A stretch of DNA of 64,000 bases, taken from the NCBI RefSeq assembly GCF_988243305.1, contig NZ_OZ547136.1. One strand, given 5' to 3'. The first letter of the stretch is position 1; each line of letters starts with the position of its first letter. Positions 4,165 through 59,826 of this stretch are shown here, in pieces. The notes beneath the pieces are model-generated. The model was given only the letters and a program-made list of their open reading frames with translations. It did not search any database and was not told where the DNA came from. The translations under genes and the position numbers were made by a program.

Positions 4165-5025
4165 GTGAGCGAAATGGTTGATACAACTCAAACTACCACC
4201 GAGAAAAAACTCACTCAAAGTGATATTCGTGGCGTCTTCCTGCGTTCTAACCTCTTCCAGGGTTCATGGAACTTCGAACGTATGCAGGCACTGGGTTTCT
4301 GCTTCTCTATGGTACCGGCAATTCGTCGACTCTACCCTGAGAACAACGAAGCTCGTAAACAAGCTATTCGCCGTCACCTGGAGTTCTTTAACACCCAGCC
4401 GTTCGTGGCTGCGCCGATTCTCGGCGTAACCCTGGCGCTGGAAGAACAGCGTGCTAATGGCGCAGAGATCGATGACGGTGCTATCAACGGTATCAAAGTC
4501 GGTTTGATGGGGCCGCTGGCTGGTGTAGGCGACCCGATCTTCTGGGGAACCGTACGTCCGGTATTTGCAGCGCTGGGTGCCGGTATCGCAATGAGCGGCA
4601 GCCTGTTAGGTCCGCTGCTGTTCTTCATCTTGTTTAACCTGGTGCGTCTGGCAACCCGTTACTACGGCGTAGCGTATGGTTACTCCAAAGGTATCGATAT
4701 CGTTAAAGATATGGGTGGTGGCTTCCTGCAAAAACTGACGGAAGGGGCGTCTATCCTCGGCCTGTTTGTCATGGGGGCATTAGTTAACAAGTGGACGCAT
4801 GTCAACATCCCGCTGGTTGTCTCTCGCATTACTGACCAGACGGGCAAAGAACACGTTACCACTGTCCAGACTATTCTGGACCAGTTAATGCCAGGCCTGG
4901 TACCACTGCTGCTGACCTTTGCTTGTATGTGGCTACTGCGCAAAAAAGTTAACCCGCTGTGGATCATCGTTGGCTTCTTCGTCATCGGTATCGCTGGTTA
5001 CGCTTGCGGCCTGCTGGGACTGTAA
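4165..5025 (+). CDS. manZ: PTS mannose-specific EIID component
   Basis: 286-aa ORF immediately after manY; operon order manXYZ. Confidence 0.97.
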   Translation: MSEMVDTTQTTTEKKLTQSDIRGVFLRSNLFQGSWNFERMQALGFCFSMVPAIRRLYPENNEARKQAIRRHLEFFNTQPFVAAPILGVTLALEEQRANGAEIDDGAINGIKVGLMGPLAGVGDPIFWGTVRPVFAALGAGIAMSGSLLGPLLFFILFNLVRLATRYYGVAYGYSKGIDIVKDMGGGFLQKLTEGASILGLFVMGALVNKWTHVNIPLVVSRITDQTGKEHVTTVQTILDQLMPGLVPLLLTFACMWLLRKKVNPLWIIVGFFVIGIAGYACGLLGL

Positions 5026-52129: not shown

Positions 52130-53902
52130 TCAGTTATTCTCTGCCTTCTTCACAACCTGAATGCTCAGCTCAGCCAGTGCAGTCGGGTTAGCAAAGCTCG
52201 GTGCTTCAGTCATCAGACACGCTGCCGCCGTGGTTTTCGGGAAGGCGATAACGTCACGGATATTGTCGGTGCCGGTCAGCAGCATGGTCAAACGGTCAAG
52301 ACCGAATGCCAGGCCTGCGTGCGGCGGAGTACCGTATTTCAGGGCGTCGAGCAGGAAGCCGAATTTCTCGCGCTGTTCCTCTTCGTTGATACCCAGAATA
52401 CCAAACACCGTCTGCTGCATATCACCATTATGGATACGCACAGAACCACCGCCCACTTCGTAACCATTGATGACCATATCGTAAGCGTTCGCCACCGCAT
52501 TTTCCGGTGCAGCTTTCAGTTCTGCTGCCGTCATGTCTTTTGGTGAGGTGAACGGATGGTGCATTGCCGTCAGGCCGCCTTCACCGTCGTCTTCAAACAT
52601 CGGGAAGTCGATAACCCACAGCGGTGCCCATTTGCTTTCGTCGGTCAGACCAAGGTCTTTACCCACTTTCAGGCGCAGTGCACCCATCGCGTCGGCAACA
52701 ATTTTCTTGTTGTCGGCACCGAAGAAAATCATATCGCCATCTTGCGCGGCAGTACGATCCAGAATGGCTTCGATGATTTCTGCATTAAGGAACTTCGCTA
52801 CCGGGCTGTTGATACCTTCCAGACCTTTCGCGCGCTCGTTAACTTTAATGTAAGCCAGACCTTTCGCGCCGTAGATTTTAACGAAGTTACCGTATTCGTC
52901 GATCTGTTTACGGGTCAGCGATGCGCCGCCCGGAACGCGCAGAGCCGCTACGCGACCTTTCGGATCGTTCGCCGGACCTGCAAATACTGCAAATTCAACG
53001 GATTTCAGCAGATCGGCAACGTCGGTCAGTTCCATCGGGTTACGCAGATCCGGTTTATCAGAGCCGTAACGGCGTTCGGCTTCCGCAAAGGTCATTACCG
53101 GGAAATCGCCCAGATCCACGCCCTTCACTTCCAGCCACAGATGACGCACCAGCGCTTCCATCACTTCACGCACTTGCGGCGCGGTCATGAAAGAAGTTTC
53201 CACATCGATCTGAGTAAATTCAGGCTGACGATCAGCGCGCAGGTCTTCGTCACGGAAGCATTTAACGATCTGATAGTAACGGTCAAAACCGGACATCATC
53301 AGCAGCTGTTTGAACAACTGTGGGGATTGCGGCAGTGCGTAGAATTTACCTTTGTGCACACGAGAAGGCACCAGGTAGTCACGCGCGCCTTCCGGCGTGG
53401 CTTTGGTCAGCATCGGAGTTTCGATGTCGAGGAAGCCGTGGTCATCCATAAAACGGCGCACCAGGCTGGTGATTTTAGCGCGGGTTTTCAGGCGCTGAGC
53501 CATTTCCGGGCGACGCAGGTCGAGGTAGCGGTATTTCAGACGCGCTTCTTCGGTGTTGACGTGGTTAGAGTCAAGCGGCAGAACATCTGCGCGGTTGATG
53601 ATAGTCAGCGAGGACGCCAGCACTTCAATTTCGCCGGTCGCCATATCGCGGTTAATATTTTTTTCGTCACGCGCACGTACGGTGCCCGTGACCTGAATGC
53701 AGAACTCATTACGCAGTTCAGAGGCCAGCTTTAACGCGTCCGCACGATCCGGATCGAAAAATACCTGCACGATACCTTCGCGGTCGCGCATATCGATGAA
53801 GATCAGGCTACCAAGATCACGACGACGGTTGACCCAACCACACAGAGTCACCTGCTGCCCCACGTGGGACAAACGGAGCTGTCCACAATATTCTGTACGC
53901 AT
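52130..53902 (-). CDS. aspS: Aspartate--tRNA ligase
   Basis: 590-aa class II aminoacyl-tRNA synthetase. Confidence 0.97.
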
Positions 53903-54211
53903 GAGATATCCCTTAACTTAGCTGCCGGCGGATGCCCCCTGCTGCGCAGGTGACCAAGTCGCAGCGTTAGCTGTATGTCACAACTGAATGAAAAAAGGCG
54001 GCTATTATACTGGAAATTCTGCCGCACCGTAAGAGCCTGGCCCGCGCTGGAACACCTCGTTACCACTTTATATCGGGCCTGAAATCAGACTCTACGCCAG
54101 TTTGCTATAAAGGTGTTGCCCGAACTCATAAAAATTAACAAAATTTGTCGTTCCGCCATCGGCTAATCGCATTAAGGTGAGAGGCACTATTTTGTTTTGT
54201 CAGGAGTCATC

Positions 54212-54778
54212 ATGCTTGAACTTAATGCTAAAACCACTGCGCTGGTGGTGATTGATTTACAAGAAGGCATCTTACCTTTTGCCGGAGGTCCACATACTGC
54301 CGATGAGGTGGTTAATCGCGCCGGGAAGCTGGCGGCGAAATTTCGCGCGAGCGGTCAGCCCGTGTTTCTGGTGCGCGTTGGCTGGTCTGCCGATTATGCC
54401 GAAGCATTAAAACAGCTGGTTGATGTCCCCTCCCCCGCGAAAGTGTTACCCGAAAACTGGTGGCAACATCCTGCTGCATTAGGTGCAACCGACAGCGATA
54501 TCGAAATCATCAAACGTCAATGGGGTGCGTTTTACGGTACGGATCTGGAGTTGCAACTGCGCCGCCGGGGTATCGATACAATAGTATTATGTGGGATCTC
54601 GACCAATATCGGTGTTGAATCCACCGCCCGCAATGCCTGGGAACTCGGTTTTAATCTGGTGATTGCCGAAGACGCCTGCAGCGCCGCCAGCGCCGAGCAG
54701 CACAATAACAGCATCAACCATATCTACCCACGCATCGCCCGTGTGCGCAGTGTGGAAGAGATCCTCAACGCATTATGA
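54212..54778 (+). CDS. yecD: Isochorismatase-family hydrolase YecD
   Basis: Start at [20 protein letters not shown]... (188 aa). Confidence 0.93.
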
Positions 54779-54885
54779 TTTACATCGGTCTGCCGCAATG
54801 GTCGCATCCTAAATGGGTGCGGTTGGGGATCACCAGCCTTGAAGAGTATGCCCGCCACTTTAACTGCGTGATACGGAATTTTTAA
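54775..54885 (+). pseudogene. yecE: 5' fragment of yecE, interrupted by prophage integration
   Basis: ATG overlaps the yecD stop (ATGA) and encodes [32 protein letters not shown], matching recalled YecE for about 32 codons; the frame then diverges and stops after 4 codons (IRNF*). Confidence 0.8.
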
Positions 54886-54997
54886 AAATCACTAAAGAAC
54901 GCCCAAGAGCATGTTTTTTATTTAGAAGAATCAAAGCGTTGTATTTCCATGTCATATAAAAATCGGCAAAGTTCATATGTAACAAAGTGTCCCAATC

Positions 54998-55132: not shown

Positions 55133-55381
55133 ATGCGTATTGAAATCTGCATAGCCAAAGAAAAAATGACTAAAATGCCAACCGGTGCTGTGGATGCGTT
55201 AAAGGAAGAATTAACTCGGCGCATCAGTAAGCGTTATGACGATGTAGAAGTGATCGTAAAAGCCACCAGCAATGATGGGCTTTCTGTTACACGCACAGCA
55301 GATAAGGATTCTGCAAAAACATTTGTTCAGGAGACTCTGAAAGATACCTGGGAGTCTGCTGACGAGTGGTTTGTTCACTAA
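55133..55381 (+). CDS. DinI-family DNA-damage-inducible protein (prophage-encoded)
   Basis: 82-aa [12 protein letters not shown]...[11 protein letters not shown] resembling E. coli DinI (MRIEVTIAK...TWESADDWFV). Confidence 0.85.
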
Positions 55382-55449
55382 TAAACACGTAAAATCGGTA
55401 ACGGCTGGAAATCATTCAATACTCGCACTATCGAAAGTTCACCAGCCAA

Positions 55450-55495
55450 CCGCAGCACGTCCTGCATACGTCGTGTCTGCGGTTTTTCTTTTTCG
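55450..55495 (+). terminator. Hairpin and T-run downstream of the dinI-like gene
   Basis: ccgcagcacgtcctgcatacgtcgtgtctgcgg followed by tttttctttttcg. Confidence 0.55.
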
Positions 55496-55496
55496 C

Positions 55497-55766
55497 TTAC
55501 ATTGTGTCTGGTTCTTCCGGCCACTCAATATCAGGTGCAGTTGATGTATCAACACGGTTCAGCAACACCCGATATTTATTCCATGCCTCCAGCAACGATC
55601 TTTCTTCCTCCGTTGCGATTTCCAGATCTACAGCATCCTGCAGTGGCGCAATATACTCACTGAATTCCTGGATGTAGAACTGTGTGGTGACGGTCTTCCA
55701 GCCATTCGGCTCCTGCTGTATCGAAGCATACCAGGCTATTTCAATATCGCTATGCTGCGGCAGCAT
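55497..55766 (-). pseudogene. Tail fiber assembly protein remnant (C-terminal Tfa domain with unrelated N-terminus)
   Basis: C-terminal about 50 aa ([45 protein letters not shown]) near-identical to the full tfa at 56546-57130; about 150 bp of DNA is a direct repeat of the tfa 3' end. Confidence 0.7.
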
Positions 55767-55822
55767 TTAACCCCTTGTAATTCATCGCCATAATTGATTT
55801 AATTCACAAATAAAACTATAAC

Positions 55823-56491
55823 ATGGTGAAATCAATGAAAAAAAACACAGATGATGGGGCTAAAATTTACACACCACTTACCCTAAAGCTTTATGACTGG
55901 TGGGTTTTGGGAGTATCAAATCGGCTTGCATGGGGATGTCCTACAAAGGAACACCTTCTTCCACACTTTCTGGAACATTTAGGTAACAACCATCTGGATA
56001 TTGGTGTTGGAACTGGGTTTTATCTTACTCACGTACCTGAGAGTAGTCTGATATCTTTAATGGATTTGAACGAAGCTAGCCTGAACGCGGCATCTACAAG
56101 GGCTGGGGAATCAAAAATTAAACATAAAATTAGCCATGATGTTTTTGAACCTTATCCCGCGGCGTTACATGGTCAATTTGATTCCATTTCCATGTTTTAC
56201 CTTCTTCACTGCCTGCCTGGAAATATATCTACAAAAAGCTGTGTAATACGCAATGCGGCGCAGGCCTTAACTGACGATGGAACTCTATACGGAGCCACAA
56301 TTCTTGGCGATGGAGTTGTGCACAATAGCTTCGGTCAAAAACTGATGCGCATTTACAATCAGAAAGGCATCTTTTCAAACACAAAAGATTCCGAAGAAGG
56401 CTTAACACATATACTCTCAGAGCATTTCGAGAATGTTAAAACCAAGGTTCAAGGTACTGTAGTAATGTTTTCCGCTTCAGGGAAAAAATAG
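55823..56491 (+). CDS. Class I SAM-dependent methyltransferase of unknown specificity (prophage moron); start may be the ATG at 55835
   Basis: 222-aa ORF with Rossmann motif I (LDIGVGTGFY), acidic post-I residue (LMDLNE) and motif II-like FDSISMFYLLHCLP; no DNA-methyltransferase motifs (DPPY or PC dipeptide); local composition visibly AT-rich. Confidence 0.8.
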   Translation: MVKSMKKNTDDGAKIYTPLTLKLYDWWVLGVSNRLAWGCPTKEHLLPHFLEHLGNNHLDIGVGTGFYLTHVPESSLISLMDLNEASLNAASTRAGESKIKHKISHDVFEPYPAALHGQFDSISMFYLLHCLPGNISTKSCVIRNAAQALTDDGTLYGATILGDGVVHNSFGQKLMRIYNQKGIFSNTKDSEEGLTHILSEHFENVKTKVQGTVVMFSASGKK

Positions 56492-56499
56492 CATCCAAC

Positions 56500-56535
56500 C
56501 GCAGCACGTTCTTGCTTAAGACGTGCTGCGGCATA
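56500..56535 (-). terminator. Hairpin terminator downstream of tfa
   Basis: Perfect 11-bp stem ccgcagcacgt / acgtgctgcgg with a T-run on the minus strand. Confidence 0.6.
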
Positions 56536-56545
56536 ATCCCAATGA

Positions 56546-57130
56546 TTACTCACTGACAGGGTTCGTAGGCCACTCAATATCAGGTGCAGTTGATGTATCA
56601 ACACGGTTCAGCAACACCCGATACTTCTTCCAGGCTTCCAGCAACGAGTTTTCTTCCTCCGTTGCGATTTCCAGATCTGCAGCATCCTGAAGCGGCGCAA
56701 TATGCTCACTGGCTACCTGCATCAGGTTGTTTTTTGTTTCTTCCGCCTCCCGGATCCGGAACAGTTTTTCTGCTTCCGTATCCTTCACCCAGGCTGTGCC
56801 GTTCCACTTCTGAAACTCCCCTTCCGGCGATAACCAGGTAACATTTTCCGGTAACGGACCGAGTTCAGAAATAAATAACGCGTCGCCGGAAGCCACGTCA
56901 TAAACCGTTTTACCCCGATGGTCTTCAAAGAGATGCCACGATGACTCATCACTGTTGAAAACAGCCACGAAGCCAGCAGGAATATCTGGTGGTGCAATAT
57001 CGGTACTGTTTGCTGGCAGACCTGTATGAGGCGGAATATATGCGTCACCTTCACCAATAAATTCATTAGTTCCGGCCAGCAGATTATAAATTTTTATGGT
57101 CCGTGGTTGTTCACTCATTCTGAATGCCAT
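56546..57130 (-). CDS. tfa: Tail fiber assembly protein Tfa
   Basis: 194-aa ORF overlapping the stf stop by 1 nt; matches lambdoid Tfa. Confidence 0.92.
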
Positions 57131-59826
57131 TATGCAAGCCTCACAATGTAGTTAAATGCGATGTTTTTGACGGTGTTTTCCGCGTTACCCGCAGCGTTAA
57201 CGGTGATGGTATGTCCATGTGAACCAATCGCAACGGAGTGCGTATGAGCACCAATACCGACAGTATGCGCGTGTGCACCTGCAGATGCTGCTGTGCCGGA
57301 CAGTGAGTGGCTATGATTACCATCTGTACTGGTATTCGCTAACCACCCCGTAGACATACCTACTGAGCCTTGTACACCCCAGGTATTTTGACCTGAGCTT
57401 GTATAACCATATTGATAAGTATCTTTAAAAACACTGGGGTTAAATCGACGGCCATCTCTATGGCTGTGATTACCAGCTGCATTCGTGCTGCCACTTAAAC
57501 TATGGGTATGCGCACCAGTGTTATTCGTGGATTTAGTGCCGTAATCAAACGACGATGTGGTTTTCGTCCCCAAATCCGTACTGGATGCGCTGGCGCTGTG
57601 GGTGTGCGATTTAATGCCGTCCCGTTCCTGAGACAATACGGCACGACCACTGGCAGGTTTGCCCTTAATCGTCCAGCCACGCATATCAGGGATCACGCCT
57701 GACGGATAAGCGGCTGCAAGTTCCGGGTAGGCAGATTTGTCAAAAGTCTGCCCCTGCATCAGGGCATAACCAGACGGAACGGTATCCGATGGCCACGGGA
57801 TTGGTGCGCCAGGCGGATAAAACTGCTCTGATGGCGTATAGAGTGAATAAACTGTACCGTCCGTTAACCCTTCCGGCTTATTAGCAGAATATGCTGGTGA
57901 CGTATGAATCGTCACGCTGGCATTACTGGTATAATCCCATTGAATATTTACACCAGTCGCATAATTTCCGATTGCAACGTAAATATCGTAAGTATCACCA
58001 GATGTATTGACCCAGGCAAAATTTGTAAACCCTGTCGATGTGCGCTGCCATAAAGCACCAGTAATCCCCTTCGGATTACCATTACCTGCACGCAAAACAA
58101 GTTCAGATATACCTGCCTGTTGAGGTGAACCGACGTTAAATCCAGCGCCACCAATCAACGTAATTGAAACAACAGAACTCGCCTGTGGCATGGTTACCGT
58201 TGCTAATTTGAACCAACCAGCACCACCGCTGAATGACATTGTTGTTGAGTTAAGCGTACCAATATCTTTCGGCGTCAGTGTTATATCCTCCGAAAGCGCC
58301 TTACCATTCACCTTACGGTCAGAAGGTACCCGATCATTCGCATTGTCATTCGCTGCTTTAACTGCCTTCGGTGTCGCGGCAAGCGTTTCAGACGTACTGT
58401 TTGTCGCACTGCTGAGCTGTACTATCCCCTTTTTCGTCGTGCTCGCATCCTCAAGCGCCACGGCGGATGCAATATCCTCTGCCCGTTTTGCCGCTGTCTC
58501 AGCGCGCGTTGCTGCGGATTCTGCCGTACTTTTGCTCTGTGCTGCCGCTGTCGCACTGCCAGCAGCCTCTGTCGCCTTTGTGGATGCCGTCGTGGCGCTG
58601 CTCTTCGCTGCTGACGCCTGTCTGGTCGCCTCATCTTTTGAAGCAGACGCCGATGATGCCGATGACGCCGCCGAACTGGCGGACGATGCCGCTGCCGTTT
58701 TTGAGGATTCTGCGCTGGTTTCCGACGCTTTCGCGTTCGTTTCGGATGTCTTCGCTGAGGAAGCAGACCTCGCTGCTGCGCTGGCCTGTTCAGTGGCTTC
58801 GCCAGTCTTCGTTGTGGCTGTTGAAGCGGATGATGCGGCGCTTTCTGCCGATTTTCCGGCGGCGGTGGCACTGACTGAGGCCTGCCCGGCACTTGTTGAT
58901 GCGGCACTGGCGGACGACGCAGCCGCTGTTTTTGAATCTGCCGCAGCTGAGGCACTCTGTCCCGCTGCCGTTTCAGAAGACCTGGCGTTCGTCTCGGACG
59001 TTTTGGCCGCCTTCGCAGAATTTGCTGTCGCCGTTGCCGAGGAAGCTGCGCTGCTGGCGCTCGAGGCTGCGCTCGTTTCTGATGATTTTGCCGCCTCTTT
59101 TGAAGCCGACGCATCCCGGGCTGAGGTGGCAGCTTCTGACGCTTTCGTGGTCGCGGTGGATGCAGAAGTGGCTGCTGATTGTTGTGACGCTGCGGCATTC
59201 GTTTCTGACGTTTTCGCCGCAGCGGCACTGGTGGCCGCCGCGCTTTTTGAGGACTCTGCAGCGGCAGCACTTTTTTCCGCTTCAGTGGCCTTTGTTGATG
59301 CCGTTTCTGCGCTGGAAGACGCTGACTGAGCCGACGACGCGGCCTGTCCGGCTGACATGCTGGCTGCGCGTGCTGAGCCTGCAGCATCAGTCGCATGGGT
59401 TGCCGCCTCACGGGCTGATGTGCTGGCATCGCCGGCTGACTTCTTCGCGGCTGCCGTGTTCTGTGCCACTGCGGACGCGTTACGCTCCACCTCTTCCACC
59501 ATCACTTCAAAACGGCGCAGTGCCTCCGGTCGGACATCATCCTCCGTCATGGCACCGAGAAAATCATTCAGCGTACCTGGTCTGGAACCTTCATAGACGG
59601 TAATGGTCCCGGCATGTGAAGGCGGAAAACCTTCAACCAGCAGGGTGACGCTGTACTGACCATGCTCAACATCCATGCTGTAACGTCCGGCTTCATCCGG
59701 ATTTTCAGAGGCCACCGTGTTCACCACCACCGTGCTGCTGGTTCGTCTGGCCTTCAGCACAATGGTGCAGTTCTGTACTGGTTTTCCTGTGCCATCTTTA
59801 AGCACGCCAGAAATTTTTACTGTCAT
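57130..59826 (-). CDS. stf: Side tail fiber protein Stf
   Basis: 898-aa ORF with conserved N-terminus ([17 protein letters not shown]...), long Ser/Ala/Thr-rich repeat region, and C-terminal HxH-repeat region (HTHS, GAHTHS, GNHSHS, GSHGHT). Confidence 0.93.

Follow-up and report, generated by a model that had tools for sequence, protein, structure and literature searches.

An intact ybcY-family methyltransferase gene carried as lambdoid prophage cargo in Escherichia coli, with a possible role in small-molecule O-methylation

Within a stretch of 64,000 nucleotides (nt) of contig NZ_OZ547136.1 (NCBI RefSeq assembly GCF_988243305.1; this whole stretch is hereafter called the window), an open reading frame (ORF) at positions 55823-56491 of the plus strand encodes a 222-amino-acid (aa) homologue of Escherichia coli K-12 ybcY, a JerF-like class I S-adenosylmethionine (SAM) O-methyltransferase assigned to PHROG 2132. 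We propose, with moderate confidence, that this ORF is an intact copy of a ybcY-family cargo gene of lambdoid prophages and that its product likely O-methylates a small metabolite of enolic or acidic character within the lysogen.

Results

The link to known chemistry came from JerF of Sorangium cellulosum (catalogued as UniRef A1YBT9), which was found by searching paper texts for family motifs and the printed sequence of which was taken from PMC6273487. The window protein is 37% identical to JerF over 214 aa (BLASTP, E = 1e-47), and profile alignment with hhalign covered the full length (224 aligned columns; probability 100%, E = 2e-63). The two proteins have the same size and single-domain build and hold all family-invariant residues in common, but they fall into different subclades, the window protein being 53% identical to a Pseudomonas homologue and 36% identical to JerF in an alignment of 24 diverse family members that includes JerF (alignment A3). 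They also differ in setting, JerF being a tailoring enzyme with a known substrate that is encoded in a polyketide cluster, whereas the prophage gene is without biosynthetic neighbours. JerF, which tolerates a wide range of substrates, methylates 4-hydroxy-5,6-dihydro-2-pyrones at their 4-enol oxygen, and AurI (aureothin) and EncK (enterocin) have been grouped with it as the sole characterised enzymes forming O-methylated pyrones (PMC6273487). A preliminary description of the window, made from its letters alone, had been unable to assign the protein to a characterised family, a reading that is not supported in view of this full-length homology to a characterised O-methyltransferase. AurI and EncK are probably JerF homologues, which is a lead only, and the aklanonic acid methyltransferases (DnrC) and the fungal meroterpenoid methyltransferases (AusD, Trt5) may be relatives as well.

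The class assignment made in the preliminary description was upheld by both sequence and predicted structure. The SAM-binding motif I that it had pointed out, LDIGVGTG (residues 58-65; positions 55994-56017, plus strand), provides the GxGxG signature after strand 1, and an invariant acidic residue, D81, ends strand 2; an AlphaFold2 model (predicted local distance difference test score 86.6) shows a Rossmann-type sheet with alternating beta and alpha elements and the seven strands of the class. Only generic Pfam models (Methyltransf_12, Methyltransf_23, Methyltransf_25 and Methyltransf_11) were recovered above their cut-offs, and an NCBIfam scan of the window protein gave no model near its cut-off. 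Neither motif IV of DNA methyltransferases ([DNS]PP[YFW] or PCQ, sought by regular expression) nor a transmembrane segment was found in the window protein, and there was no DNA methyltransferase among its listed structural neighbours, in agreement with the earlier statement that DNA-methyltransferase motifs are absent; the protein is not a DNA methyltransferase.

Among the matches listed, the fold neighbours form a flat list at 11-21% identity and are mostly small-molecule O-, N- and C-methyltransferases (including PmtA, JHAMT, SgvM, CouO/NovO, BelI, RebM, Coq5 and Rv0560c), together with a few transfer RNA (tRNA) enzymes. This lends support to the earlier expectation that the substrate is probably a small molecule, a protein or RNA. 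Rt-PmtA (8ys9), JHAMT, CouO/NovO, BelI and Rv0560c have the same fold as the window protein, most of them at a similar size and with an N-terminal helical lid, but at 11-21% identity to it they show no family membership at the sequence level. Sequence and profile searches against solved structures gave weak core-domain matches only (ToxA, JHAMT and UbiG), none of them to a family member, and a search of a viral structure library gave nothing specific for the window protein. A quinone methyltransferase (UbiE/UbiG/RquA) was considered and rejected: the RquA match reached 16.9 bits against 175, and UbiG chains matched at an E value of about 1e-3 over the core only.

Translation probably begins four codons inside the ORF. 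Met5 (ATG at 55835), which would yield a product of 218 aa, is invariant across homologues and coincides with the residue at which the PHROG 2132 profile begins, and GGTGA lies 5-9 nt upstream of this ATG, whereas the region 5' of 55823 holds no Shine-Dalgarno-like sequence. For these reasons the true start is probably ATG 55835 and not 55823; with this adjustment, the 222-aa methyltransferase ORF of the preliminary description stands.

The gene reads antisense to the late tail genes and lies, as had been described, between an intact tail fibre assembly gene (tfa; 56546-57130, minus strand, 194 aa; Caudo_TAP, E = 4e-44) and a partial copy of it (tfa'; 55497-55766, minus strand). Both copies are on the minus strand and form direct rather than inverted repeats, a point corrected here. 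The repeat, which consists of a hairpin element and the 3' end of tfa, spans 231 bp at 55443-55673 and again at 56492-56722 (1049 bp from start to start), and a core of 153 nt is 91% identical between its two copies. In strain S1-ISR-02-A, a prophage at the same yecD site has flanks 94-98% identical to those of the window and no methyltransferase gene (gene order yecD, truncated host ORF, dinI-like, tfa, stf, lom). Both 231-bp repeats of the window map onto one single 231-bp stretch of that prophage, and the window is therefore the S1-ISR-02-A locus plus exactly 1049 bp (55674-56722). Because the sister prophage is without exactly this segment, bounded by the 231-bp repeat, the methyltransferase gene is a true presence/absence cargo cassette. 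The same comparison, extended to related prophages having stf and tfa with a synthetic 'empty site' query, found the insert missing from 75 genomes of the same flanks as well, in which stf, tfa and dinI stand in an uninterrupted arrangement without the methyltransferase. The unique part of the insert (55674-56491; 818 bp, 41.1% G+C (GC)) comprises the first 93 nt of tfa', a 56-bp spacer and the methyltransferase gene. Where the tail-fibre operon ends, this cassette can be gained or lost through homologous recombination between the two tfa 3'-end copies, which stand in direct orientation.

Composition also sets the gene apart from its surroundings. The methyltransferase ORF has a GC content of 40.8% (35% at third codon positions), against 50.4% for the window, 48% for tfa, 54% for stf and 53% for the host gene yecD, and it falls within the lowest 3% of all 669-nt windows of the 64 kb. 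An earlier estimate by eye (roughly 40% against 50%) thus proved accurate when windowed GC was computed, and the idea that an AT-rich cargo gene, or moron, was acquired independently is supported by the difference between 40.8% in the ORF and 48-54% in the flanking phage genes and by the absence of the gene from the sister prophage. Classical lambdoid morons (lambda bor and lom; HK97 gp15) are likewise extra late-region genes of deviating composition with a promoter region (a candidate one in the window) and hairpin of their own, and they too are present or absent among related phages, as is the methyltransferase cassette; however, they encode envelope or exclusion proteins, whereas the moron of the window, known here from sequence, encodes a predicted cytoplasmic enzyme. 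The chromosomal homologue of Enterobacter hormaechei (locus L013, 5001-5657) is AT-rich too, at 39% GC, which is below expectation for an Enterobacter chromosome. Because of this, the gene looks foreign in several Enterobacteriaceae, beyond the phage copy. The Erwinia and Pseudomonas copies of the family have 56-57% GC.

The preliminary description had called the gene an orphan, a label that its distribution contradicts. At a threshold of at least 95% identity, a gene-specific segment was found in 3797 of the 5426 complete E. coli genomes searched (70%), at 4880 places and with as many as four in a single genome. The gene already carries an annotation everywhere, has a name in K-12 and is of an ordinary type; the window protein matches PHROG 2132 (function unknown) and has homologues in hundreds of clusters. 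Its K-12 counterpart, ybcY of DLP12 (annotated as a putative SAM-dependent methyltransferase, pseudogene), lies between tfa fragments beside appY and ompT. The DNA of the two is 98.8% identical over gene and flanks and the layout is the same (a tfa fragment, tfaD, an opposite-strand methyltransferase and a tfa' remnant, tfaX), but the K-12 copy is frameshifted and accompanied by a truncated tfa, whereas the window copy is intact and resides in another prophage, at the yecD site. The gene is carried by 14 sequenced lambdoid phages (for example, ev243 and 2G7b) and is retained in inducible phages, and the cassette occurs in prophages at other sites too (for example, the pot locus). Among clusters formed at 99% identity, one that comprises 6589 sequences is represented by a protein of full length (222 aa). 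The gene was also found, at 98.9% identity, at 53375-54097 of HM037272.1, a record labelled as a plasmid of Bacillus thuringiensis CT-43; the presence of this E. coli prophage gene there most likely reflects contamination or misassembly in the record.

Homologues 51-90% identical to the window protein occur in Citrobacter, Salmonella, Enterobacter, Klebsiella, Yersinia, Erwinia, Providencia and Proteus, and the family extends at 40-53% identity to Pseudomonas, Dyella, Lysobacter, Agrobacterium, Acidobacteria and many fungi. In a library of representatives at 50% identity, 1322 clusters matched at E ≤ 1e-3, 197 of them at E ≤ 1e-30. Salmonella STM1638 (beside rydC and cybB) and the chromosomal homologues of Enterobacter, Erwinia, Yersinia and Pseudomonas resemble the window protein in being 51-65% identical, of the same length, stand-alone and of unknown function, and differ from it in lying outside tfa-flanked cassettes, among variable neighbours. 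Literature on ybcY, STM1638 and tfaX yielded passing mentions only and no reported function, and the earlier statement that the function in E. coli is undescribed therefore holds for the literature searched. One family member, P0242 (719 aa, from an assembly of a public sequencing run), is fused to a C-terminal cytochrome P450 domain; the fusion may be genuine or may have arisen as an artefact when genes were called on a eukaryotic contig.

Gene neighbourhoods were surveyed at 80 homologous loci from species-representative genomes and at six others, with all neighbouring ORFs clustered. Across these 86 loci no conserved partner gene was found; only generic families recurred (short-chain dehydrogenases/reductases, LysR, chemoreceptors and ATP-binding cassette proteins), and a lineage-specific synteny (DUF6388, methyltransferase, enoyl-CoA hydratase) was seen in Pseudomonas. 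In O157:H7 strain 380-94 (locus L018, 6124-10204) the cassette is longer, with con-10/YciG-like, YciE/YciF, ferritin-like and Mn-catalase (KatN-like) genes on the same strand between the methyltransferase gene and tfa, and represents a second copy of a general-stress cluster as prophage cargo. The homologue in the Pseudomonas cichorii group (locus L003) is preceded by DUF892, Mn catalase and DUF6388. Any connection with the yciGFE-katN stress genes is a weak lead at most, because a targeted search found it in O157:H7 and the P. cichorii group and in no further lineage.

In the 56 bp that separate the tfa' ATG from the divergently oriented methyltransferase ORF (55767-55822, plus strand), a promoter scan recovered two sigma-70-like candidates, TTAACC-16-CATAAT (55767-55794) and TTGATT-17-TATAAC (55794-55822). 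In the ybcY/tfaX spacer of K-12, Shimada et al. (2014) reported a constitutive RpoD promoter, TTGATT-17-TATAAC, that was flagged as H-NS bound, and the same element is found in the window at 55794-55822. Judging from what has thus been published for the K-12 copy (98.8% identical), the gene would be transcribed from its own sigma-70 promoter, probably damped by H-NS. The cassette gene would in this way read against the late genes from a short promoter region of its own, with a strong hairpin separating it from tfa. This G+C-rich hairpin (56499-56531) lies between the converging stops of the methyltransferase gene and tfa; its folding energy is -23 kcal/mol on the plus strand (z -4.8) and -28.5 kcal/mol on the minus strand (z -6.1), and it has no U-run on the plus strand.

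Further features of the locus are phage genes and remnants of host sequence. The tfa' remnant, an 89-aa ORF and the counterpart of K-12 tfaX, matches the Caudo_TAP profile at positions 75-130 only. It is chimeric, with residues 3-37 matching the N-terminus of phrog_3893 (of unknown function) and residues 31-86 (the C-terminal ~56 aa) matching Tfa, and the complete ORF matches a PHROG of its own, phrog_2341; from these matches, tfa' is a leftover formed by fusion and has in turn been copied widely. The candidate E. coli small RNA IS009 (Rfam RF02111) was detected inside tfa (56589-56787, minus strand; 224 bits against a gathering score of 117) and, at 115 bits, slightly under that score, inside the tfa' remnant (55540-55743, minus strand). 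Since the matches coincide with the repeated tfa 3' segment, this 'RNA family' may be plain tfa sequence.

Upstream of tfa in the late operon is the side tail fibre gene stf (57130-59826, minus strand, 898 aa), identified by the annotation of homologous loci. The centre of stf (58190-59429) is a long Ala/Ser/Thr-rich repetitive region with 61% GC and a strong AT skew, and it yields long spurious ORFs (379, 335 and 236 aa) in other frames or on the opposite strand. At the other end, the final prophage gene ahead of the junction with host DNA is DinI-like (55133-55381, plus strand) and is followed 3' by an intrinsic terminator (hairpin at 55448-55484 with a U-run). The junction itself (54775-54870, plus strand) is marked by a host ORF (54775-54873, plus strand) that overlaps the yecD stop and is truncated after 32 codons (PGAP, 'incomplete, missing C-terminus'); by the K-12 gene order this ORF would be yecE and the prophage, hence, would be integrated in yecE. 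The junction region of 354 bp has 40% GC and contains two 21-nt direct repeats, at 54988 and 55029.

Discussion

We picture the product of the window gene as a soluble methyltransferase of class I, SAM-dependent and built of a single domain, which, to judge from its homologues, would require no partner protein. Most likely it would act in the cytoplasm of the lysogen on a small metabolite or xenobiotic, cyclic or of beta-dicarbonyl type, and O-methylate an acidic enol, hydroxyl or carboxyl there; we infer small-molecule O-methylation since JerF is the one characterised member found in this family of ~220-aa proteins. A benefit to the host could, more speculatively, lie in detoxifying or altering a foreign small molecule or signal. 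The narrower idea that a foreign enolic heterocycle (a pyrone, tetronate or tetramate, furanone or quinolone, acting as a toxin or signal of competitors, diet or host) is methylated, and that this protects the lysogen or blinds it to that signal, is an unlikely one in our estimation; if true, it would amount to lysogenic conversion through small-molecule methylation, with the gene present in most E. coli.

A number of observations weigh against an enzyme of this activity at work in the lysogen. As far as sequence comparison goes, 37% identity to JerF fixes neither the substrate nor the methylated atom. JerF itself belongs to another subclade, in which its nearest relatives are unnamed stand-alone genes of ~219 aa (Azotobacter, Methylocystis, Sorangium), and because of these relatives its biosynthetic role was probably recruited from a broader family. 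The window gene has tfa, tfa', a dinI-like gene and stf as neighbours, not a polyketide cluster, and production of pyrones is not known from E. coli. Extract of BL21 without jerF failed to methylate the JerF substrate (PMC6273487), a result that bears on the window gene only insofar as BL21 has an intact, expressed copy. The sigma-70-like promoter scan of the spacer scored no better than shuffle expectation, and H-NS binding may leave the methyltransferase gene largely silent. The K-12 copy, moreover, is frameshifted without known consequence, and deletion of ybcY was without effect in the one phenotype test found in the literature.

Some of these points could equally describe a largely functionless passenger, kept because tfa segments that recombine enclose it and because ancient prophage remnants such as DLP12 contain it, silenced by H-NS and without benefit to the lysogen. 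The frameshift in K-12, the H-NS flag at that locus and the lack of a mutant phenotype in that one test all fit such a passenger, as do truncated variants (for example, a 161-aa cluster with 445 members); in addition, identity is 95% or higher for every E. coli copy, and the high prevalence could thus reflect linkage and recent spread. Comparison between genera argues otherwise, with ratios of non-synonymous to synonymous substitution (dN/dS) of 0.1-0.2 (0.19 against Citrobacter, 0.11 against the Salmonella island copy and 0.11 against Enterobacter). The window protein also keeps all 27 of the 27 columns that are invariant in alignment A3 (Y16, Y24, D25, W37, C39, H57, G61, G63 and G65 of GxGxG, D81, D120, S121, H129, C130 and K138, among others), the representative of the main cluster is full-length, and inducible phages retain the gene. 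By this pattern of substitution and conservation the gene is under purifying selection and selectively maintained, and we regard the passenger explanation as unlikely.

An RNA or protein methyltransferase whose target is a tRNA, ribosomal RNA (rRNA) or protein, either the host's or a competing phage's, and which thereby alters translation, induction or superinfection, seems rather improbable to us. It has a precedent in a different prophage methyltransferase of E. coli strains that produce Shiga toxin (STEC), one that acts on 16S rRNA (PMC10810198), but that enzyme is of the MT-A70 family, has its gene in the early region and depends on a subunit that binds nucleic acid (PMC10810198), and its identity with the gene studied here was rejected on these grounds. 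The window protein has neither a nucleic-acid-binding domain nor a partner, is homologous over its full length to a small-molecule O-methyltransferase, and has stand-alone homologues in fungi and soil bacteria.

The preliminary description had further suggested a defence or counter-defence function, under which the enzyme, as cargo at the prophage end, would methylate a phage-related or immune-signalling small molecule. The gene is polymorphic in its presence, and the tail-fibre end does carry other cargo (the DinI-like gene in the window, stress genes in O157, a macro-domain gene in another strain). PADLOC 2.0, however, gave only mad2, a weak match (E = 0.003, 14 bits) across the general methyltransferase core. 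The gene has no partner, and its close homologues sit as ordinary genes on the chromosomes of Enterobacter, Salmonella (STM1638), Erwinia and Pseudomonas and also in fungi; the suggestion thus found no support, and we hold it to be doubtful, on a par with modification of RNA or protein.

Phospholipid N-methylation of the PmtA kind, which would take phosphatidylethanolamine toward phosphatidylcholine in the lysogen membrane, is very unlikely: although the best Foldseek match in the PDB is PmtA of R. thermophilum (8ys9; E = 4e-12, template modelling score 0.61-0.67), a weak NCBIfam PmtA match exists (E = 0.01) and an N-terminal Tyr and a His following strand 4 form part of a similar overall arrangement, membership was rejected at 15.6 bits against the NF045882 cut-off of 390, identity is 15-16% only, JerF is a much closer relative and E. 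coli is regarded as having no methylated phosphatidylethanolamine or phosphatidylcholine, though most strains carry the gene.

A ybcY-family cargo gene for small-molecule O-methylation therefore remains our preferred reading. The gene is among the commonest cargo genes of E. coli prophages, yet it belongs to a family, spread over Proteobacteria and fungi, for whose stand-alone enzymes no function has been reported and no structure solved. The link to JerF offers concrete chemistry, namely O-methylation of acidic enols, and the natural pair of prophages with and without the cassette offers a genetic comparison. Should the substrate prove to be a toxin or signal of a competitor, the gene would represent a new kind of prophage benefit to hosts; otherwise it would be just a well-conserved enzyme.
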